DNA from: a virus
DNA: 20,682 nt
UHGV virus genome: UHGV-0140731
Reading direction: 5' to 3' (one strand)
Part shown: in pieces, positions 9,239 to 20,682 of the stretch
How the letters are laid out: each line of letters starts with the position of its first letter
Numbering within the stretch: the stretch's first letter is position 1
The notes under the pieces: generated by a model
Databases searched by the model: none
The model's input: the letters and a program-made list of their open reading frames with translations, nothing else
Told to the model about the DNA's origin: nothing
Translations under genes and position numbers: made by a program

Positions 9239-9319
9239 GATCTTATCGCCTACCGTTTCGGTTTAAGTTTTTCTTCCAGTTTCTCCAACAGGAAAAACGC
9301 ATAGGATTCAGTAAGCCTT

Positions 9320-10201
9320 TCAGCGTCCTGAATCGGTATACCCCCATACAAAACCAGGTTGGACACTAAGGTCTGATAGCTTTTCAATCCCCACCTGTGG
9401 AATGAAGTCGGTAGCCCGAAAGGGCACCCACAGACGGGTATACGCACCCTCTGTGGACTCCTTTTTATCCTGATTTGGGCATTTATGCGGCGGGAGACGA
9501 AGACGCATTTCACCTTTATCGATGTAGCACGGTAAACCATGTTCGAGCTTTTCATGAGCCAGTCGGATGTGTGCCGCCAGCTTCATAAATTCAGTATCAA
9601 TGGCCATCCGTTTAATCGTTTCATAACGACGCTCAGCCTGATCTTCACGAGTACCGCTAACATCGTTATAAAGCTCACACTGATAAGCGAATTCCCAAAA
9701 ACGCAAATCAACGATCGCTTCTTTGAATTCCGCGTCATCTTCAGGTGGCAATGCTGCACGGCGCATCTCCAGCATTTCCATTGCCCAACCATCAAGCGGC
9801 ACGATACGCCATTGATAAGGTACTCCCTCTACAGACACCTCAATATCGTCAATGAAAGGTTCCACTTCCAGGACCTGGATATCTTCAGCCAGAGCATTCA
9901 TATCGCAATCGTAATAATGCTCTTTACCGCAATGTTTACAGGTGTAGGTGAATGTCTCGACCGGTGTTTCACGGGAGCCGGTAAATATCCACCATAACGC
10001 GGTAATCCGGTCCTGCGCCGTCCATGTCAGGGGATCATGTTTCACGGGTTCAGCCAGCAAGGCTTTTAAATACGCCGTTGTCTGTTGTTCTTGTTCCTCC
10101 GGTGTTATCGAGTTGAAACGCATCGCATCAGCAATATTTGGCTGACGGAACTGGATCAATTCAGTTGGCCGCGATGGTAGCGGGAAAAGGGGTAAAAGCA
10201 T
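9320..10201 (-). CDS. Phage structural-module protein, unknown function (contains CxxC...C cluster)
   Basis: 293-codon ORF; ATG 10199-10201 with AAGGAG 5-6 nt upstream; CKHCGKEHYYDC motif. No family assigned. Confidence 0.5.
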   Translation of the reverse strand: MLLPLFPLPSRPTELIQFRQPNIADAMRFNSITPEEQEQQTTAYLKALLAEPVKHDPLTWTAQDRITALWWIFTGSRETPVETFTYTCKHCGKEHYYDCDMNALAEDIQVLEVEPFIDDIEVSVEGVPYQWRIVPLDGWAMEMLEMRRAALPPEDDAEFKEAIVDLRFWEFAYQCELYNDVSGTREDQAERRYETIKRMAIDTEFMKLAAHIRLAHEKLEHGLPCYIDKGEMRLRLPPHKCPNQDKKESTEGAYTRLWVPFRATDFIPQVGIEKLSDLSVQPGFVWGYTDSGR

Positions 10202-10215
10202 CCTTGCTCCTTAAT

Positions 10216-10827
10216 TCAAAGAGAAAAACTAAAGCCCAGAAGGGAAGCCAAAGAACTTGAGGATTGGTTAAACGTGCTGTGCAATGCGAAGGTCATTGGG
10301 AATGACTTAAATTCCGTAACCTGATCCCGCGCATAGGTGACATCGCCGGTAGTGACAGGGAATACAGTCATCTCATTTTCCAGTTTGGTTAAGCCGGAAG
10401 ACAGCAACCGATAAATACGCACATTGAGCAAATATTTAGACGGTATATTCCCGGTACCGTCTGGATTAATCACCCGACTTTTTGCCGTCTTAAACCAGTC
10501 CAAAACGAGGCCATCAACGGTATCCCTGACCATCATTGTTATCTGCCCAGGCGAACGCTCCGTTGGTTGAAGGATATTCCCTCCGCCGATTTTAATCGTT
10601 TCATATTCGATGCTGTAATCGTGGTAGGTAATGTCTTTGGCAAAGAAGTCTGCCCCCTCCAGTCCATCAACTTCGACAGAGAACTGCCATCCTTGCGCGA
10701 ACAACATTTTGTTCATGATGATTGACGTCAGCTTACCAATTTCCCGCTCACCAACGCCGGAGCCAAATAATGTCGTCGTTAATGCCGAAGATACATAAGA
10801 CTTTACTGAAGCAACATTAAGCCCCAT
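10216..10827 (-). CDS. Phage structural-module protein, unknown function
   Basis: 203-codon ORF; ATG 10825-10827 preceded by GGGAG; tightly packed with neighbours. Confidence 0.5.
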   Translation of the reverse strand: MGLNVASVKSYVSSALTTTLFGSGVGEREIGKLTSIIMNKMLFAQGWQFSVEVDGLEGADFFAKDITYHDYSIEYETIKIGGGNILQPTERSPGQITMMVRDTVDGLVLDWFKTAKSRVINPDGTGNIPSKYLLNVRIYRLLSSGLTKLENEMTVFPVTTGDVTYARDQVTEFKSFPMTFALHSTFNQSSSSLASLLGFSFSL

Positions 10828-10837
10828 ATCAGCTCCC

Positions 10838-11428
<591 letters not shown>

Positions 11429-11557
11429 TTAACCGATTCTACGAGTTGTCATTTGTTACCGGTCAGTCTACACATTTCAGATGCTGCGTTAAAAAATTCA
11501 AGTACTTCAAGTAGCACATCGTCATCAACACCCAGCCCCAAGATACGGTGATAAAAT

Positions 11558-12535
11558 TCAAGCCTTAAGAGGCTTTGTGTATGTTCGTGTAATCCAACCA
11601 GTAATAAACTCATCCCCTGATTTAACCTGCACGTAAAGCCATTGACGATCTTTCTTATCTAAAATAGCAACAATTGTGTTTTTGCCAATGCATTCAATCA
11701 CTTCACTATTTAAAGAAGGGCTGACATGTAATCTTACGTTATCACCAGTTATAAACCTAAAACCATTGAGATCTTCCCACTTAATTTCTGTGTTTTCTTT
11801 AATTAATTTTTGTTTTGATATTGGTGCATCCTCATATAGGGATACAGAATATGATTCTGTCTTGTGTATTTGCGATAAGATTTGTTCTTTTGCATAATCA
11901 GCAATGGCACCAAGCAACACTTCTGTTAAAAACCACATAATAATAAACTGAAGCGGGTGAGGGAGCGCCTTAAATGAGTCAATAAACGTCGAACTGGATT
12001 TATTTAATCCTTTGTCTTGAACATCACTTTCGTTGTGAGATGTTTCAATAGCACCTTCAACATAAGCCTGTGCAATTGATGAAAGACCTTGCTCCATTGT
12101 TCTATTAAATAGAGATGTCTTTTTTTCAATATATTGATTTTCTTGTTTTTTTATAATATCTTTTGTTAAATCATCGTAAGTTATATATTCTCGTAAATTT
12201 TTAAGTGTAGCCTCCATACTTTCCAAGCCAGCTTGTTTATTAAAAACTTCTATCTGGCTTTGTAATGACAAAGATTTTTCCGACTGTTTCTGAAAATTTT
12301 CAACATACTTACGGAAAAGATGGTTTATCTCATTCGTTTTTAGTGATGTGTTAAATTTTTTTTGAAGATAATTATCTAATATTTTTTGAGATGTTTTTTC
12401 CAAAACTATATGCAATAGATTTTGTTGCAAAAAATCAAGCGGGGTAGTAAGACCACCCAAACTCACTGATTTTGCTAAATTACTTAACTCGTTATATTTG
12501 GAGCTATTAATACTTGCCATCTTATTCGCCATCAT
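11558..12535 (-). CDS. AT-rich cargo gene: membrane protein with central TM helix and C-terminal SH3b-like domain
   Basis: 325-codon ORF in strongly AT-rich DNA; hydrophobic segment LQFIIMWFLTEVLLGAIADYA; C-terminal ~65 aa resemble bacterial SH3 domains (GDNVRLHVSPSLNSEVIECIGKNTIVAILDKKDRQWLYVQVKSGDEFITGWI). Exact start ambiguous (MMANKMAS). Confidence 0.55.
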   Translation of the reverse strand: MMANKMASINSSKYNELSNLAKSVSLGGLTTPLDFLQQNLLHIVLEKTSQKILDNYLQKKFNTSLKTNEINHLFRKYVENFQKQSEKSLSLQSQIEVFNKQAGLESMEATLKNLREYITYDDLTKDIIKKQENQYIEKKTSLFNRTMEQGLSSIAQAYVEGAIETSHNESDVQDKGLNKSSSTFIDSFKALPHPLQFIIMWFLTEVLLGAIADYAKEQILSQIHKTESYSVSLYEDAPISKQKLIKENTEIKWEDLNGFRFITGDNVRLHVSPSLNSEVIECIGKNTIVAILDKKDRQWLYVQVKSGDEFITGWITRTYTKPLKA

Positions 12536-13028
12536 ATTGTTTTAAACACCCGTCTTTTTTAGCTTCCTTGTAAATACTTGAAATACCATTAAGAGAGAAT
12601 GATGTGATTCGACGCGATCCGATATATACATCCATGTTTTTTTCTTTTGTGGCTGACGCTGACTTCCAAAAAGAATACCATTCCCTACGATTTGGAGCAG
12701 TGTTTTGCGTACCAATATTAAAGCTATCCGGACCAACAATTAAGGTAATTACATCAGCTTTACGAGAAATTGTATCGCGTGTAGAAAAATCAGCATTCTC
12801 TTTCCCTCCGCTTACATACAAATTTCTTCCAGCGATATGATCTTCGGAACCTTCCCTTGCTCCAGCATCACAAGAAAAGTTAATTGTATAGCCATCGTCA
12901 TTGGCTGCAGAAATTTCTCTCCACCCTTGCTCACCTCCTACCGTCCAATCGGTAGAACTTGCCATTGCTGATAATGGCAAGAAAGAGGGCATTAATAAAA
13001 AGCTATACAATGACTTATACAATTTCAT
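12522..13028 (-). CDS. AT-rich cargo gene: secreted/periplasmic protein (signal peptide), unknown function
   Basis: 168-codon ORF; ATG 13026-13028 with AAGGA upstream; N-terminal signal-peptide-like sequence MKLYKSLYSFLLMPSFLPLSAMA. Confidence 0.55.
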   Translation of the reverse strand: MKLYKSLYSFLLMPSFLPLSAMASSTDWTVGGEQGWREISAANDDGYTINFSCDAGAREGSEDHIAGRNLYVSGGKENADFSTRDTISRKADVITLIVGPDSFNIGTQNTAPNRREWYSFWKSASATKEKNMDVYIGSRRITSFSLNGISSIYKEAKKDGCLKQYDGE

Positions 13029-13116
13029 ATTTTTATCCTTTTGGTTTTAGGTATTACAGGCATAGTCCATATTGTTAGATCCACTATGCCCAGAGAATTT
13101 AATATTATTCATTAAA

Positions 13117-13608
13117 TTATGGAGCTACACCCGGCCCCCTAGCTCGTTCTTCAAGCGTACCCTGTACGTTTTGATGGCGCATTCCCGGGGCATTTCTGAT
13201 TGAGTCAATGCCATTTCTTCCAACATCTTCTTTATTGACGGCATTGCTCGCCACCAGCACCCCCCAGCTAGGGATAGCAAAATCAGGAGCGGTTTCGCAT
13301 GCCTTTACCATATAATCGAAAGTGCTTCGATTGATCTCGTTCGCGTCCGGATTTAACAGGCGAGAATATTGATATTTAGCATTTTCGTTGGTTGCGACTT
13401 TATACAGTTCTTGCTGCACCATCGCTTCAGAAAGTTTAAGGCGTTTCATGTCTGAAAGTAACTTCTTGCGCATGGATTCGTCTTGGCTGACAGCAAAGCC
13501 GTAAACGTGCCCAAGGTATTTCGTATAATCGGTACAAATCTCCTTTACACTTGATGCTGCATTAACAGTCCCAGCCATAAATAATAACGGTAGTAATAGT
13601 TTTCTCAT
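13117..13608 (-). CDS. Secreted protein with a Sit-related C-terminal tail (chimeric)
   Basis: Start placed at ATG 13606-13608 (MRKLLLPLLFMAGTVNA, GGTGAGG upstream) rather than the longer track start. The last ~45 aa (SNAVNKEDVGRNGIDSIRNAPGMRHQNVQGTLEERARG) are homologous to a segment of the Sit-like protein (GNAVGVNDLVNKFMNGRGMRREVVQGTLEERARG). Confidence 0.55.
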   Translation of the reverse strand: MRKLLLPLLFMAGTVNAASSVKEICTDYTKYLGHVYGFAVSQDESMRKKLLSDMKRLKLSEAMVQQELYKVATNENAKYQYSRLLNPDANEINRSTFDYMVKACETAPDFAIPSWGVLVASNAVNKEDVGRNGIDSIRNAPGMRHQNVQGTLEERARGPGVAP

Positions 13609-13704
13609 TATAACCTCACCTGCCTTATAACCCATTTAGGGTACATATTTTCGCCTTTAAAAAAAAGAGGTTATTAGATCCATTTGTGTATTTATCATAC
13701 AATT

Positions 13705-13721
13705 AATGCTCTAATAAATTT
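13705..13721. promoter_or_regulatory. P1 C1-repressor-type operator (AATGCTCTAATAAATTT)
   Basis: One mismatch to the P1 C1 operator consensus ATTGCTCTAATAAATTT as I recall it; located between divergent transcription units, upstream of the immI-like promoter. Confidence 0.55.
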
Positions 13722-13759
13722 GTATTTTTAAGTCGCGAATGCTATCTTTTCGCATCATA

Positions 13760-13788
13760 TTGACCTTTTAATCGTTCAGGCTTATAGT
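13760..13788 (+). promoter_or_regulatory. sigma70 promoter candidate (TTGACC-17-TATAGT) for the c4/icd/ant-like operon
   Basis: -35 TTGACC at 13760-13765, 17-nt spacer, -10 TATAGT at 13783-13788, read directly from the sequence. Confidence 0.55.
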
Positions 13789-13919
13789 TCCGCCGTCGTA
13801 GCAAATTCTGCGACCGGGTTTAGCAGCCTGAATACTTACGCGGACAACCGCAGATTTCCGATATTGCGGTATTTTTGTGTCCGTAAACCACGTTACGCCC
13901 GAATTATGGTGGGGCGTGA

Positions 13920-13997
13920 TGGGGAGGCTTCGGCCTGCTGGTTTCGTAAGTGCCAGTCTGCTAACCCCGTCACGTCCTGCCACCTGTTTAGCAGCGG
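13920..13997 (+). ncRNA. Candidate c4-like antisense RNA (immI-type translational repressor)
   Basis: Contains a UUCG-tetraloop hairpin (aggc-ttcg-gcct, 13926-13937) and a 7-bp stem (ctgctaa 13958-13964 / ttagcag 13988-13994). Two short elements, cggcct (13931-13936) and tcgtaagt (13944-13951), are complementary to adjacent target sequence 14016-14028 (acttacgaggccg) covering the icd Shine-Dalgarno. Boundaries are approximate. Confidence 0.4.
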
Positions 13998-14033
13998 GTC
14001 GCAGGTTGTTTATCAACTTACGAGGCCGTAACT

Positions 14034-14255
14034 ATGGTTAATGCCAATCCGTGCGCACGCCAAGAATTCATCTGGCGTTTCTATTCCTGTAAAAAACACC
14101 ACTATCACTTCGTTATCGCAGCAACAGAAGACGAAGCACGCTCTCAATTGCCTGATGGCCCCTGCATTTTTACTGCCCGTTTTTCAACTAACTCGCGCAA
14201 TTCACTTAGTTACTGGAGCCTCCCCTTCTCTGCCGACGTTCAGGGGGGTTTATGA
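14034..14255 (+). CDS. Icd-like small protein (P1 immI 'interference with cell division' analogue), translationally coupled to ant
   Basis: 73-codon ORF; GAGG 8 nt upstream of ATG 14034; stop overlaps the ant start as ATGA (14252-14255). Size and position match P1 icd as I recall it. Confidence 0.55.
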   Translation: MVNANPCARQEFIWRFYSCKKHHYHFVIAATEDEARSQLPDGPCIFTARFSTNSRNSLSYWSLPFSADVQGGL

Positions 14256-15289
14256 AAAAACCTCTCGTCACCCGTAATGAAATAGCCGAAGCGATCGCCC
14301 TGCATACAACCTGTATGCCGACACGGGAGATCCCCGGCGCAATTGCCAACTATTTCATGATAACCAGGCGTTTTTATACCCGAACAGATAAGGCTGTGAT
14401 CAACAGGCTACTGATAGCCGAGATCAGGGATTATTTGATTGAACAAGGACGTCTACGTTACGCAACAGTGGCAGCAGAAATGAGAAAGGAGGCGCGCAGA
14501 ATGACCGGTAATAATTTGAATGTTGAAAAACCAGCACCTGTTGCTTCAGCTACGCCAGCACCAGCCCTGAATGTCATCCCCAACACCGGAGACACAATCG
14601 ACAGCCAAACATTGTTGAAGATGGTCAATGAGGCACGGAAATTATGTAGCGAAAAACCAGTTCGCAACAATGATTTCATTGCCAGAGTTAAGGATGAGCT
14701 TGAAGGAGAAACCTACGAAATTTTCGTAGGTCAAAAAAACGGCGCAGAAATAGATATTATAACCATGACCTACAAACAAGCCCTGCGAGTTGCCGCGCGC
14801 GAGTCAAAAGCGGTCCGCCGTTCGCTGATCGACAAACTAGAAGAATTGCAGCAGGCAAACTCCCCTACCCCATCGATCCCCCAAACATTACCAGAAGCCC
14901 TACGCCTGGCTGCCGAGTTGGCAGAACAGAAATTGCAGCTGGAACAACAGCTGGTGGCCGCAGCCCCTAAAGTCGATTTTGCCGACCGGGTATCAGTGGC
15001 TAATGGAATCCTGATCGGGAACTTTGCAAAGGTCGTTGGACTTAAGCAAAACGCCCTTTTCTCATGGTTGCGCCAGAACGGCATTCTCATGGCTTTTGGT
15101 GCGCGCAAAAACGTACCGCGCCAGCAGTACATTAACGCCGGGTATTTCACGGTGAAAGAAGTGGTGCTGGATGATGAAAATGGCTACCAGATACGGCTGA
15201 CGCCCCAATTAACGGGTAAAGGCCAGCAGTGGTTAACTCGCAAGCTACTTGATGCTGGCTTGTTAAAACCAGTGGCGTCCTTGTCTTAA
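14252..15289 (+). CDS. ant: Phage antirepressor Ant (C-terminal KilAC/ANT domain)
   Basis: 345-codon ORF; C-terminal ~140 aa (IPQTLPEALRLAAELAEQK...GNFAKVVGL...GKGQQWLTRKLLDAGLL) form the ANT/KilAC domain and are paralogous to the C-terminus of the downstream KilA. Confidence 0.8.
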   Translation: MKKPLVTRNEIAEAIALHTTCMPTREIPGAIANYFMITRRFYTRTDKAVINRLLIAEIRDYLIEQGRLRYATVAAEMRKEARRMTGNNLNVEKPAPVASATPAPALNVIPNTGDTIDSQTLLKMVNEARKLCSEKPVRNNDFIARVKDELEGETYEIFVGQKNGAEIDIITMTYKQALRVAARESKAVRRSLIDKLEELQQANSPTPSIPQTLPEALRLAAELAEQKLQLEQQLVAAAPKVDFADRVSVANGILIGNFAKVVGLKQNALFSWLRQNGILMAFGARKNVPRQQYINAGYFTVKEVVLDDENGYQIRLTPQLTGKGQQWLTRKLLDAGLLKPVASLS

Positions 15290-15698
15290 CGTATTCAGAC
15301 CAAGATTTGCCATAAATTACAGGCATGTGTACGATATGCCCAACCCTGTTTTTCAGGGGAGGCGCAACGTTATGCGGGGGTTATGAACTCCTGGATGCGT
15401 AGCCTCCAGACAGAAAAAACCCTCGCCACAACGTTGCATGGAGGCAACCAGCGAGGGCATTCCTTATGTCTGATCAACAAGAGGATAGCCGCAAGCAGTT
15501 GCTGTTGCAAGTGTGCGGAGCTTCGTAATGACTCTTCAAAAAGCTTGCAAGTGGATTGTGACCAACATCATTGTTCCTGTCATCATCGGAGCGTCAAGTT
15601 CTGTGTTGGCATCAGTGATTGCCTCACTTCTCCACATTGCATAACAACATTGGAGGGCGTTAGTTCCGCAGTGTAACAGCAGCGCGTTGCGCCCGAAC

Positions 15699-15734
15699 AG
15701 GCCACAGGGTAAAACCTGTGGCCTTTTTCGTTTT
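15699..15734 (+). terminator. Rho-independent terminator
   Basis: aggccacagg-gtaaaa-cctgtggcct (10-bp GC-rich stem) followed by ttttcgtttt. Confidence 0.65.
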
Positions 15735-15843
15735 AGCCAGCCACAAATCCACATTGAAAAACGCCTTATACAAAAAAACCTGCCAGCGAACTGACAGGTT
15801 TCTGAGCAGATCGACCAACCCGATCTGGATCGGACTGGAAAAA

Positions 15844-15860
15844 TTTGCTCTAATAAATTT
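15844..15860. promoter_or_regulatory. P1 C1-repressor-type operator (TTTGCTCTAATAAATTT) upstream of kilA
   Basis: Shares TGCTCTAATAAATTT exactly with the site at 13705-13721; lies ~70 bp upstream of the kilA start and overlaps a weak candidate promoter (TTGCTC-17-TAAGTG). Confidence 0.55.
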
Positions 15861-15929
15861 CGTTTTCTAAGTGCAAAGAATCACCATTTCGAGCTGGTGA
15901 TTGAAGGTTGATGCAAATTTGGAGAAAAA

Positions 15930-16730
15930 ATGCAACAAACATTCAATGCGGATATGAATATATCAAACCTTCATCAAAATGTCGATCCTTCAACCACTCT
16001 GCCCGTTATTTGTGGTGTTGAAATTACGACCGACCGCGCTGGCCGTTACAACCTTAATGCTCTACACAGAGCGAGCGGACTCGGTGCCCATAAAGCGCCA
16101 GCTCAATGGCTAAGAACGCAGTCAGCCAAACAGCTCATCGAAGAGCTTGAAAAAGAAACTATGCAGAATTGCATAGTTTCGTTCGAAGGTCGTGGCGGCG
16201 GCACTTTTGCCCATGAATTGCTCGCTGTGGAATACGCAGGCTGGATTTCTCCCGCATTTCGGCTGAAGGTAAACCAGACATTTATCGACTATCGAGCCGG
16301 AAGATTACAACCTGCTATTCCGCAGAGTCTCCCTGAAGCTCTCCGTTTGGCTGCCGACCTGGCAGAGCAAAAGCAACGGCTGGAGCAAAAAATGCTTATG
16401 GATGCACCTAAAGTCGAATTCGCCGAACGCGTTGCTACCGCCAGCGGGGTTCTAATCGGCAACTATGCCAAAGTGCTCGGCCTGGGCCAAAACTATCTCT
16501 TCACCTGGTTGCGTGATAACGGAATTCTGATCGCAACCGGTGAACGCAGGAACGTCCCCAAACAAGAATACATATCCCGTGGGTACTTCACCCTCAAAGA
16601 AACCGTGATCGATACAAGCAACGGAAGCAGGATTTCTTTCACGACTCGTATAACCGGCAAAGGTCAGCAGTGGCTAATGAAGCGATTGCTTGATGCTGGT
16701 GTGCTGGTACCTGTCGCGGCCACGCGCTAA
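15930..16730 (+). CDS. kilA: KilA (KilA-N domain plus KilAC/ANT C-terminal domain)
   Basis: 266-codon ORF with GGAG 5 nt upstream; C-terminal domain paralogous to Ant; size and position (operator, then kilA, then a 281-codon gene) match the P1 lytic replicon as I recall it. Confidence 0.7.
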   Translation: MQQTFNADMNISNLHQNVDPSTTLPVICGVEITTDRAGRYNLNALHRASGLGAHKAPAQWLRTQSAKQLIEELEKETMQNCIVSFEGRGGGTFAHELLAVEYAGWISPAFRLKVNQTFIDYRAGRLQPAIPQSLPEALRLAADLAEQKQRLEQKMLMDAPKVEFAERVATASGVLIGNYAKVLGLGQNYLFTWLRDNGILIATGERRNVPKQEYISRGYFTLKETVIDTSNGSRISFTTRITGKGQQWLMKRLLDAGVLVPVAATR

Positions 16731-16759
16731 CAGACGTAGTAAGAACCACCAGCATTGTA

Positions 16760-17605
16760 ATGCTGGCTAAAGTCACTTTCCTGAGCTGTATAACGATGAG
16801 CGATTTTACTTTTTCTGGCTATGAATTGGCCTGCTTTGTAACACACTCCGGTCTATCCCGTAGCGCCGGGCATATCCTGTCGCAATGTGCAAATCTCGCG
16901 GCAACAACCAGTGAATACTTCATTCACAAGCCTCACCGCATGATTGCGGCAGAAACTGGTTATAGCCAATCAACCGTCGTTCGCGCATTCCGTGAAGCTG
17001 TAAACAAAGGAATCCTGTCGGTAGAGATTGTTATCGGCGAGCACCGTGAACGTCGCGCTAACCTGTACCGGTTTACACCATCCTTTTTGGCCTTTGCTCA
17101 ACAAGCCAAAAATGCGCTAATTGAAAGCAAATTAAAGATCTCTTCAGCCGCAACCAAGGTTAAAGCAGTTCTCGCTAAGACATTGGCTTTATTTGATTTT
17201 TTATCCACACCCCCATGTCAAAATGATACCCCCTCCCCCTGTCAGGATGACGTGGCAATAAAGAATAAGAAGTCACAAGTTAAAAAAACAAAAAGATCAG
17301 TTTCCGGCGGTGCCGGAACGACCAGACTCAAAAAATTGACTTCATGGATCGCTGAGGCAAAAGCAAAGGCTGACAATCTGCGGTTATCCAAAAAACGCGC
17401 TCAAAAACATGAGTTCAAGCAGAAAGTAGAGGCGGCAGCGCGGAAATATGCTTACCTGAAGAACAAGCGTTCTCCTGATATTGGCGGGGTATCAAACTTC
17501 GATAATCTGCCGCATTGCATGACGGTAAACGAAGCTCTTAATGCGGTTTTAGCCAAAAATAAAGATAACGAACAATGGGGTATACCGGCAGGATTCAGAG
17601 GGTGA
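16760..17605 (+). CDS. repL: RepL-like lytic replication protein (HTH-containing)
   Basis: 281-codon ORF immediately after kilA; helix-turn-helix-like segment AAETGYSQSTVVRAFREAVNKGIL. Assignment is by context and size; weak Shine-Dalgarno, start uncertain (ATG 16760 or 16796). Confidence 0.5.
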   Translation: MLAKVTFLSCITMSDFTFSGYELACFVTHSGLSRSAGHILSQCANLAATTSEYFIHKPHRMIAAETGYSQSTVVRAFREAVNKGILSVEIVIGEHRERRANLYRFTPSFLAFAQQAKNALIESKLKISSAATKVKAVLAKTLALFDFLSTPPCQNDTPSPCQDDVAIKNKKSQVKKTKRSVSGGAGTTRLKKLTSWIAEAKAKADNLRLSKKRAQKHEFKQKVEAAARKYAYLKNKRSPDIGGVSNFDNLPHCMTVNEALNAVLAKNKDNEQWGIPAGFRG

Positions 17606-17689
17606 TAGATTGCTCTAATCTGGAGTCACCTGGCGTTTTCAGTTTGAGGTCGGAGATGCAATCTGATTTTTTACAGTTAGCGATCGCTT

Positions 17690-17902
17690 TTGCAGCGATA
17701 TGTTTGTATTGGCTTCTGTGTATACATGATCAGCCGAAAAATGCTTGTTGATATCGACCGCAAAGAACGAGCAGAGGAGATCTTAGTATGGATTTTCTTT
17801 GGCGCGGTCTGGCCATTAGGGATCATGTTTGCTGCAACATTTCTTCTGATGTGGATATTCACCCTTCCAGGTGATTTCTATAGAAAAAAAGCCAGACATT
17901 GA
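17690..17902 (+). CDS. Small hydrophobic protein (possible two-TM membrane protein), hypothetical
   Basis: ORF with hydrophobic stretches (ILVWIFFGAVWPLGIMFAATFLLMWIF); no clear Shine-Dalgarno; could start at internal ATGs. Confidence 0.3.
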   Translation: MQRYVCIGFCVYMISRKMLVDIDRKERAEEILVWIFFGAVWPLGIMFAATFLLMWIFTLPGDFYRKKARH

Positions 17903-18099
17903 TACAATCGTTGCGGGTGCTTGAGGCTATCTGCTTCAGGCATTACCCGAAAAGCAGATAGAAGAAAGCCCCAGATAACATTACGCGTCCTGCAAGACGC
18001 TTAACATTAATCTGAGGCCAATTTCATGCTAGACACATGTAGGTTAGCCTCTTACGTGCCGAAAGGCACGGAGAAGCAGGCTATTGTTAACACCAAGCT

Positions 18100-19600
18100 G
18101 TAATGTCCCCTTTGAACCATTCTAAAATGTCCCCAGACAATTCTCTGGGGGATTTTTCATGATCAAAGAGACTGTTACGATGAGTCATAAGGAACTCCAC
18201 CGACTTCAGATTATTCAGGAACAAGCTGCGGCACGCATTGGCATTTCTATTCGGCAGGTTAAACGTCTGGTGCAACGGTATAGAAATGAAGGGCCTTCTG
18301 GTCTGGTTTCCCACCGACGTGGAAAGCGTCCTAATAATTCCTTTTCTACTGAATTCAGAGCAACAGTAATTTCACTCCTCAAAGGCCGTTACGCTGATTT
18401 TGGACCTACGTTTGCGTGCGAAAAATTGCGCGAGATACACGGTTTATCTTTATCCGTTGAAACTCTCAGAAAGTGGATGATAGAAGAGGGGTTATGGCGT
18501 GAACGCCGTCGTAAAATTGCCCGTATATATCAACGCCGCATGCGACGACCATCTTACGGTGAACTGATCCAGATTGATGGCTCACCTCATGACTGGTTTG
18601 AAAATCGAGGCCCCAGATGTACACTGATCGTTTTCATTGATGATGCCACCAGTGCGTTGATGGCGTTGCGTTTTGTGCCTGCTGAAACAACCCGGGCTTA
18701 CATGGAAACCCTCCGGGGTTACCTTAATGATCATGGCGTACCGCTCGCTCTCTACTCTGATAGACACAGTATATTCAGGGTAAATAACCCAGAGCGGGAA
18801 GGTGAGCTGACCCAGTTCACTCGTGCGATAAAGACACTGGGCATCGAGCCAATCCATGCCAACAGCCCGCAGGCAAAAGGGCGGGTAGAGCGCGCCAATC
18901 AGACACTACAGGACAGGCTGGTCAAAGAAATGCGGCTTCAGAATATCAGTGATATTGAAACAGCAAATGCATGGTTGCCGACCTTTATTGAAGCCTATAA
19001 CAACCGGTTCGCTACGTCGCCTCGTACTACTGATAATGCTCATCTTGATGTGCACCATTCTGAAGAGGAACTGGGTTATATCTTCAGCCTACAGGCGAAG
19101 CGCGTTCTGTCTAAAAATCTCACTTTCCAGTACAAAAGCAGTGCGTTTCAGGTACGCAGTGAGGGCCGGGGATATCGACTTAGGCATTCGGTTGTTACTG
19201 TATGCGAGAACTTTGACGGTGAAATTAACGTTCTGTATGACGGGAAAGCGCTGGGCTGGGAAAAGTATGTTGATGGCCCGGAGCCTATACCACCGGATGA
19301 TGAAAAGAGTGTCCATGAACGAGTGGATAATGCCCGTATTGATTTACGCTCAAAATACTATGTTAAACCTAAAGCTGACCATCCCTGGCTTACGCGCCGA
19401 ACGCAAAGTCATCAGCAAGTTAAGCCCCCGAAGTTACCTAAAAAGAAGCCTGATCCCGATAAAAAAGATTGAAACCAAGATCGATTCGGTTGAGTGCATA
19501 TCCATTCATAGGGTAGATTCTTAAGTCGCGTTTCTGGTGTTCATTTTCGGGTGGTTTGTTACTTGTTTTACCGGGGATATGCCAGAAACGCGCTGAGTCA
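18100..19600 (+). mobile_element. Insertion sequence carrying a DDE transposase (ends not defined)
   Basis: Single transposase ORF flanked by non-coding DNA; no clean terminal inverted repeats could be defined by eye, so boundaries are approximate. Confidence 0.3.
18159..19472 (+). CDS. DDE transposase (rve/integrase-core type; IS481- or ISNCY-like)
   Basis: 437-codon ORF with N-terminal HTH (IGISIRQVKRLVQRY) and catalytic-core motifs (LIQIDGS..., LYSDRHSIF, SPQAKGRVERANQTLQDRL); GGGGGA upstream of the ATG. Confidence 0.8.
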   Translation: MIKETVTMSHKELHRLQIIQEQAAARIGISIRQVKRLVQRYRNEGPSGLVSHRRGKRPNNSFSTEFRATVISLLKGRYADFGPTFACEKLREIHGLSLSVETLRKWMIEEGLWRERRRKIARIYQRRMRRPSYGELIQIDGSPHDWFENRGPRCTLIVFIDDATSALMALRFVPAETTRAYMETLRGYLNDHGVPLALYSDRHSIFRVNNPEREGELTQFTRAIKTLGIEPIHANSPQAKGRVERANQTLQDRLVKEMRLQNISDIETANAWLPTFIEAYNNRFATSPRTTDNAHLDVHHSEEELGYIFSLQAKRVLSKNLTFQYKSSAFQVRSEGRGYRLRHSVVTVCENFDGEINVLYDGKALGWEKYVDGPEPIPPDDEKSVHERVDNARIDLRSKYYVKPKADHPWLTRRTQSHQQVKPPKLPKKKPDPDKKD

Positions 19601-19908
19601 GTCTGGGCGGTGCGCGTAATGAGGCGTTATGGTAAATAGCCTATGCTAATGTCCGCTAAGAGCAAGAAGCGGAAGTTGGCAGTTTTGTGGACTGTCCCCA
19701 CAAAAGTGACTACAGAAATAGTTGCAATTCATAATTGATCATGGGTTGTCAGTTAAACTCGTGGCGATTTAAATAGACTAATTGGGAGGGCGTCCATTAC
19801 TTATATCTTGTAATGTTAACTATCAGAAATGATACAAAGATAATATGTCTTTAAAGAAAAGGCTGATGGCGAAAAGTGGCCCGATGAGGGCCACAATACG
19901 GCTGTCAC

Positions 19909-20241
19909 TTAGACGTAAATATCAATGGTGCCAGCGGTATTTGTATCGTCTTTTTTCTCTTCTTTTTTATCAGGCTGAACTGTCGCGTCTTCATTCTTTT
20001 TCTCTGCCTGCTGCCTTAACAACTGCTCCAGTTGAGCCCAGAGGCTTTCAATTTGCTTCTGTACCAATGCAGCCATTTCTTTTTTCTGCTGTGTCGTCAT
20101 CCCCTCTTCCGATGAGATTTTCCCAAGCTTTTCAGTCAGCACCTGAATTTGTCTTGTGATTTTGGCTATTTCTGATGTTCCTTCCGGGGCGGAGTTGTTT
20201 GAAATAACGGTTGAGGTATTTCCCTGAATTGTGACAGACAT
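19909..20241 (-). CDS. flxA: FlxA-like protein
   Basis: 110-codon ORF (MSVTIQGNTSTVISNNSAPEG...IDIYV) with AAGGAG upstream; size and sequence character match E. coli FlxA as I recall it; preceded by a near-consensus sigma28 promoter. Confidence 0.6.
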   Translation of the reverse strand: MSVTIQGNTSTVISNNSAPEGTSEIAKITRQIQVLTEKLGKISSEEGMTTQQKKEMAALVQKQIESLWAQLEQLLRQQAEKKNEDATVQPDKKEEKKDDTNTAGTIDIYV

Positions 20242-20264
20242 AGATTTCTCCTTTTAAAAAAGCA

Positions 20265-20291
20265 CTATCGGCATGCACAAAAAAATCTTTA
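20265..20291 (-). promoter_or_regulatory. sigma28 (FliA) promoter candidate for the flxA-like gene
   Basis: Minus strand reads TAAAGATT-N11-GCCGATAG, against the consensus TAAAGTTT-N11-GCCGATAA. Confidence 0.55.
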
Positions 20292-20372
20292 ATCGTATTT
20301 CTTGTGTCATTAATTGTTTGATGTTCAGATTGTTTTCCTCGCGGGCTGGCGCGCCTCAGAAAGTAAAGCTTG

Positions 20373-20400
20373 TTGACAGGGGTAAACGTTCGGCAATAAT
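20373..20400 (+). promoter_or_regulatory. sigma70 promoter candidate (TTGACA-16-AATAAT), divergent from flxA
   Basis: Perfect -35 hexamer at 20373-20378 and -10-like AATAAT at 20395-20400; the downstream target is unknown because the contig ends. Confidence 0.35.
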
Positions 20401-20654
20401 TTTCTGCCGCATGCGGGTGTTGCATAAAACGTGTTACGTTCCTTTATCGACAGGTCAGGTCACCGCTCACCCGCCGACGAGAAAGCAACACTGACATGCT
20501 AAAGCAAAAAATAGATGAATAAGTTGAGTTGTGCATATGTAGCCTGACCGTCACAAAGTATATGGTGTCTGTACCAGTAAGATGATGGCCGGACTCTTTA
20601 AAAACGAGCTGACCTGCACAATACAGGATGGACTTAGCAATGGCTGCTCCTGGC

Positions 20655-20682
20655 CTGTCTCTTATACACATCTCCGAGCCCA
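20655..20682. other. Illumina Nextera / Tn5 mosaic-end adapter sequence (contig-end artefact)
   Basis: Exact match to CTGTCTCTTATACACATCTCCGAGCCCA, the Nextera read-through adapter. Confidence 0.9.

Follow-up and report, generated by a model that had tools for sequence, protein, structure and literature searches.

The window, by which we mean the whole 20,682-nucleotide stretch of UHGV virus genome UHGV-0140731, consists of a P1-like phage-plasmid part (1-18084) joined to a chromosomal Qin-type prophage part (17912-20654) within a hok/sok leader that the two share (17912-18084), followed by 28 terminal bases (20655-20682). Positions 1845-18084 are about 97% identical to P1-like phage-plasmids of 90 to 110 kb, and this part carries tail-fibre genes, a Sit-like transglycosylase gene, ant, kilA, and repL (16760-17605). 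Using Rfam, we also placed on the plus strand, at 13782-13834 and 13902-13987, a C4 antisense RNA together with the a1/b1 sites that it targets; this combination makes up the immI immunity region, as is typical for P1 and P7. At the left end (1-2804, minus strand), a 249-nt repeat occurs in four copies, starting at 1, 518, 1032, and 1471, which are 77 to 92% identical and encode Collar-domain tail-fibre C termini. A 132-nt tandem repeat of 2 to 2.4 copies lies at 1830-2144, in the Phage_fiber_2 part of a 522-aa fibre ORF. The contig opens inside the first copy of the 249-nt repeat, and finished P1-like plasmids each contain 8 to 14 places that match it. Therefore, the number of cassettes seen here is a lower bound, and the doubt that the initial annotation raised over the repeat copy number was well placed. 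The left end is probably a multicassette, possibly invertible, host-range region that was ended early by the end of the contig.

The Qin-type part, 17912-20654, is 99.4% identical to prophages of 776 complete genomes. It contains an intact gene for a 437-aa transposase of the ISNCY/IS1202 group (18159-19472, plus strand), with an HTH domain and a weak, sub-threshold match to rve_3, and the assembly collection lists this exact protein in 2385 blocks. The 49-aa ydfW of K-12 is identical to the last 49 codons of the transposase gene except for its start codon, which identifies ydfW as a transposase remnant. Among ten chromosomal contigs longer than 1 Mb, the transposase always lay between the Qin early genes and flxA, relBE, and hokD, with ydfV called in 6 of the 10; P1 genes were never found beside the exact transposase in these ten contigs. 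In Qin-type prophages, the hok/sok leader (window 17915-18085) is followed directly by the ISNCY-family transposase gene, and hokD is encoded about 3.3 kb downstream, beyond flxA, ydfV, and relBE (contig L122, 3001-6617). It looks as if inserted DNA had split an ancestral hok locus in these prophages, which might explain why hokD of K-12 sits behind relBE without a leader of its own. The terminal region of the window is the flxA-ydfV part of such a prophage: flxA lies upstream in the window, and relB is the next gene in reference genomes.

The last 28 bases, CTGTCTCTTATACACATCTCCGAGCCCA (20655-20682, plus strand), follow the prophage at a junction that reads ...GCTCCTGGC and then CTGTCTCTTATACACATCTCCGAGCCCA, with ...GCAATGGCTGCTCCTGGC as the longer left flank. 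Picelli et al. (2014; PMC4248319) give oligonucleotides for Illumina-compatible tagmentation, including Tn5MErev, CTGTCTCTTATACACATCT, and Tn5ME-B, GTCTCGTGGGCTCGGAGATGTGTATAAGAGACAG. In reverse complement, Tn5ME-B gives the 34-mer CTGTCTCTTATACACATCTCCGAGCCCACGAGAC, the first 28 nt of which match the end of the window exactly. Thus, the initial annotation, which had recognized a Nextera read-through adapter here, was correct over 28 of 28 bases. The 34-mer is printed in 120 papers and appears in PMC6460022 among the custom sequences given to a read-trimming program. Within the 28 bases, positions 20655-20673 (plus strand) are the 19-nt Tn5 mosaic end, an exact match to CTGTCTCTTATACACATCT that is identical to Tn5MErev (PMC4248319), and positions 20674-20682 (plus strand), CCGAGCCCA, cover the opening 9 of the 15 nt that make up the Nextera B (i7-side) tail CCGAGCCCACGAGAC, matched through Tn5ME-B. 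The mosaic end was engineered by combining the two natural ends of Tn5, outside and inside, and optimized for in vitro use (PMC3347997, PMC4248319), and it serves as the synthetic transposase recognition end in Nextera tagmentation. All 9 available bases of the tail agree with the B side, the last 6 constant bases of which fall beyond the contig end; the A-side adapter agrees with the terminal 28-mer at just 20 of 28 positions. The 19-mer and the full 28-mer each have a single exact match in the window, at these positions on the plus strand, where the adapter points outward and occupies the contig terminus. The 5' end of the window has no adapter, and TruSeq, P5, and P7 sequences were found nowhere in it.

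Using the last 1000 bases of the window as the query, we obtained matches in 1216 complete E. coli records, of which 1157, K-12 MG1655 included, reached at least 80% query cover; identity was mostly 99% or more. In all of the matches listed, homology ended at query position 972, which is window position 20654, and beyond it those genomes read ACAAAGCGG... in place of the adapter. In a direct alignment, the window agrees with MG1655 at 255 of 255 positions through 20654 and departs from it thereafter, where MG1655 reads ACAAAGCGGACAGTGATCACC... Beyond this point MG1655 is matched by L124, an independent metagenome contig whose gene order is the same, both reading ACAAAGCGGACAGTG... Across 5,426 complete E. 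coli genomes (28 Gb in total), the 34-nt adapter was not found, and the junction between genome and adapter gave 0 matches in a scan of viral contigs.

When one genome per prokaryotic species was scanned, the 28-mer turned up in at least 120 contigs (L002-L121) of unrelated bacteria and archaea, including Loktanella, Pedobacter, Collinsella, Elusimicrobia, Verrucomicrobia, a Poseidoniales archaeon, and a Crenarchaeota archaeon. Among the matches listed, 126 of 130 occurrences pointed outward and were no more than 75 nt from a contig end, and ten contigs had the adapter at both ends. Directly after the 28-mer, 115 of 117 cases among the matches listed had CGAGAC, and then came an 8-nt index, with 33 different values among these matches, and the P7 sequence ATCTCGTATGCCGTC. 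The commonest indices among the matches listed were CGAGGCTG, AGGCAGAA, GTAGAGGA, CTCTCTAC, TAGGCATG, and CGTACTAG, which we take to be Nextera N7xx indices. Nextera adapter remnants are thus common in deposited metagenome-assembled and draft genomes. Because bacteria and archaea share the 28-mer only at contig termini, with sample indices next to it, the sequence is a library oligonucleotide. The break in homology, the absence from finished E. coli genomes, and the recurrence in unrelated taxa together bear out the earlier statement that these bases are not biological sequence. They are an ordinary untrimmed-adapter artifact and represent no real biological feature.

Next to the junction lies an ORF on the minus strand, 20444-20671, that encodes 75 aa beginning MCIRDRPGAAIAK..., with MCIRDR at its start. 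Residues 7 to 75 of its product are identical to residues 33 to 101 of E. coli K-12 YdfV (69 residues), so that the ORF consists of six adapter-derived codons joined to the body of ydfV. The 101-aa YdfV of MG1655 (WP_001326990.1) reads MSLQVSHYNMLRASHEGSQKVVVRTVITVRFV and then PGAAIAK...TCR, whereas the window ORF reads MCIRDR and then PGAAIAK...TCR; where codon 6 of the ORF stands, native YdfV has V (RFV before PGAAIAK). Codons 1 to 6 (20654-20671, minus strand, as given by the translation in the ORF list) are ATG TGT ATA AGA GAC AGg and derive from the mosaic end in reverse complement; the sole genomic base among them is the third base of codon 6, at 20654. The remainder, 20444-20654 on the minus strand, is by its identity to MG1655 YdfV a 5'-truncated ydfV of the Qin-type prophage with codons 33 to 101 and the stop. 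The 32 codons with which ydfV really begins fall off the contig end, and the six adapter-encoded residues take their place, so that the window holds neither a full-length YdfV nor its native start. The ORF had been called spurious in the initial annotation. Its MCIRDR start is indeed artifactual, but its body belongs to an annotated gene. YdfV is an annotated protein of unknown function, and a Pfam search gave no match for its body. Read inward, all 130 adapter ends among the matches listed give MCIRD[RS], and 32 of these 130 ends yield ORFs of at least 60 aa. The 75-aa chimeric ORF had no exact match in the assembly collection, and a full-text search of the literature for "MCIRDR" returned no mention.

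We considered whether the terminal bases could have come from something other than a sequencing library. A chance resemblance within genuine E. coli sequence has practically no probability. The given 28-mer has a probability of 1.4e-17 at any one position, 100 dinucleotide-preserving shuffles gave 0 matches for either the 19-mer or the 28-mer even with up to 3 mismatches permitted, and related genomes differ from the window from the first adapter base onward. It is also exceedingly improbable that a natural Tn5/IS50 element inserted in ydfV and that the contig broke at the element's end, although insertion sequences are frequent sites of contig breaks and the Tn5 outside end agrees with the terminal 19 nt at 16 of 19 positions. 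These 19 nt are the engineered mosaic end, with 3 mismatches to the natural outside end and 4 to the inside end. The outside-end sequence was that of PMC3347997, and the outside-end oligonucleotide of that paper continues with AGCGTCCTG, whereas the next 9 nt in the window are CCGAGCCCA, the Illumina B tail, and do not continue into IS50. A natural element is further contradicted by the lack of the 34-nt adapter from every one of the complete E. coli genomes searched.

It is also very unlikely that the strain is a laboratory mutant in which a transposon with engineered mosaic ends, of the EZ-Tn5 type, had inserted into ydfV. Such transposons do terminate with the identical 19-nt mosaic end. 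However, the 9 nt on the inner side of the mosaic end are exactly the Nextera B adapter, and an engineered transposon would not carry an Illumina B tail. Moreover, the identical 28-mer stands at the contig ends of at least 120 unrelated environmental and gut assemblies, and the rest of this contig resembles a wild P1-like element and a Qin-type prophage, unlike a laboratory construct. The natural element, the engineered transposon, and chance were all rejected, the first of them on the exact match to both mosaic end and B tail.

We are thus almost certain that the last 28 bases are an untrimmed Illumina Nextera adapter that was left by read-through and gave the truncated ydfV a false start. 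What we observed directly is which sequence this is, that it is terminal and points outward, that homology breaks at its first base, that finished E. coli genomes lack it, and that it recurs in unrelated taxa. From tagmentation library practice, we infer a short insert, a missing trimming step, and the behavior of the assembler. Tn5 transposase loaded with mosaic-end oligonucleotides would have cut the DNA after what is now position 20654, and the B adapter would have been joined there. If the insert was shorter than the read length, the read would have passed the genomic end into the mosaic end and the adapter, and with reads from which adapters had not been trimmed, the assembler may have carried the contig into the adapter and halted there. 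The cut, the read-through, and the omitted trimming are steps that follow established knowledge of tagmentation libraries. The minus strand of the mosaic end holds an ATG in frame with the interrupted ydfV, and an ORF finder therefore calls a complete ORF of 75 aa. As far as the sequence goes, nothing in it speaks against the adapter reading, the visible part of which is 28 nt and includes neither index nor P7.

A Nextera adapter at the contig end makes it reasonable to regard the contig as a short-read draft, as the initial annotation had it. This status fits both the start of the contig inside a repeat copy and the join between P1-like and chromosomal sequence, which is unseen in finished genomes. 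The hok/sok leader in which the join lies (17915-18085; Rfam sok, 115.9 bits) is carried by both replicons. Plasmid-type variants extend up to 17975 and chromosome-type variants begin at 18021, or at about 18036 when measured against the allele of contig L127, so that the switch interval is 17976-18035 and comprises 45 to 60 nt of identity. A narrower crossover, confined to the 45-nt identical stretch 17976-18020, was rejected because the hok allele of L127, a purely P1-like metagenome contig, resembles the chromosomal type in its more rightward part. Searches with window positions 17300-18700 as the query found the join, at 80% cover or more, in none of 5,426 complete E. coli genomes, 72,556 plasmids, or 50,697 phages. 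The same join was found in two other metagenome contigs, L124 (IMGVR_UViG_3300018478_000166) and L125 (OKOJ01000004.1), and was seen only in metagenome-assembled contigs. We favor a repeat-induced misassembly, which is the probable explanation. A real, recurrent recombination between the phage-plasmid and a resident prophage is a tentative possibility, considered because the same join is present in these two other contigs.

In L124, the P1 part is 98% identical to the window, with a 141-nt indel, and the chromosomal part is 99.7% identical. Its P1 part differs from the window almost as much as a typical P1-like plasmid does, and the joins therefore look independent. L125 is 99.8% identical to window 17501-19663. 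The two contigs have peculiarities of their own. L124 (4778-5227, compared with window 17644-17784) is missing 141 nt of a small ORF downstream of repL, and early in the transposase gene (window 18207-18220) it has about 13 extra nt, a short duplication; several complete genomes match the transposase in two pieces, as L124 does. In L125, positions 1-986 are an unrelated IS30-family element (ISCfr4-like, about 93% identical) that replaces the sequence to the right of window 19663. It is an independent IS insertion upstream of flxA, and some complete genomes have IS1 in the same neighborhood.

The significance of the adapter is purely practical. The genuine contig is 1-20654, and ydfV is 5' partial in it. 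Without trimming, a chimeric "MCIRDR..." protein would enter databases, and the identical false start arises at every contig end that terminates in this adapter. An untrimmed adapter is also a sign of little assembly quality control. It lowers trust in the copy number of the tail-fibre cassettes and in the join between the P1-like part and the Qin-type prophage, and it calls for caution over the long-range structure of the contig.

Several known systems can be set beside this contig end. With the Nextera read-1 read-through sequence CTGTCTCTTATACACATCTCCGAGCCCACGAGAC, the window agrees over all 28 visible bases, and these are terminal, point outward, and start where the E. coli homology stops; it differs in holding just 28 of the 34 constant bases, with the index and P7 lost at the contig end. 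The natural Tn5/IS50 outside end, CTGACTCTTATACACAAGT, is likewise a 19-nt transposase end and is identical at 16 of 19 positions, but the window has the 3 mismatches of the synthetic mosaic end and then Illumina adapter instead of IS50. Compared with ydfV of the K-12 Qin prophage (WP_001326990.1), residues 33 to 101 and the neighboring genes are alike, whereas the first 32 residues differ in the window ORF. The window end belongs to the same class of artifact as the adapters and barcodes that contaminate other deposited assemblies (the UniVec or NCBI FCS-adaptor class), in which synthetic library oligonucleotides likewise sit at contig termini and affect downstream analysis. An Oxford Nanopore survey (PMC13182109), which calls Illumina adapter contamination in deposited bacterial assemblies well documented, differs in both platform and oligonucleotide from the Illumina Nextera sequence that ends this window.
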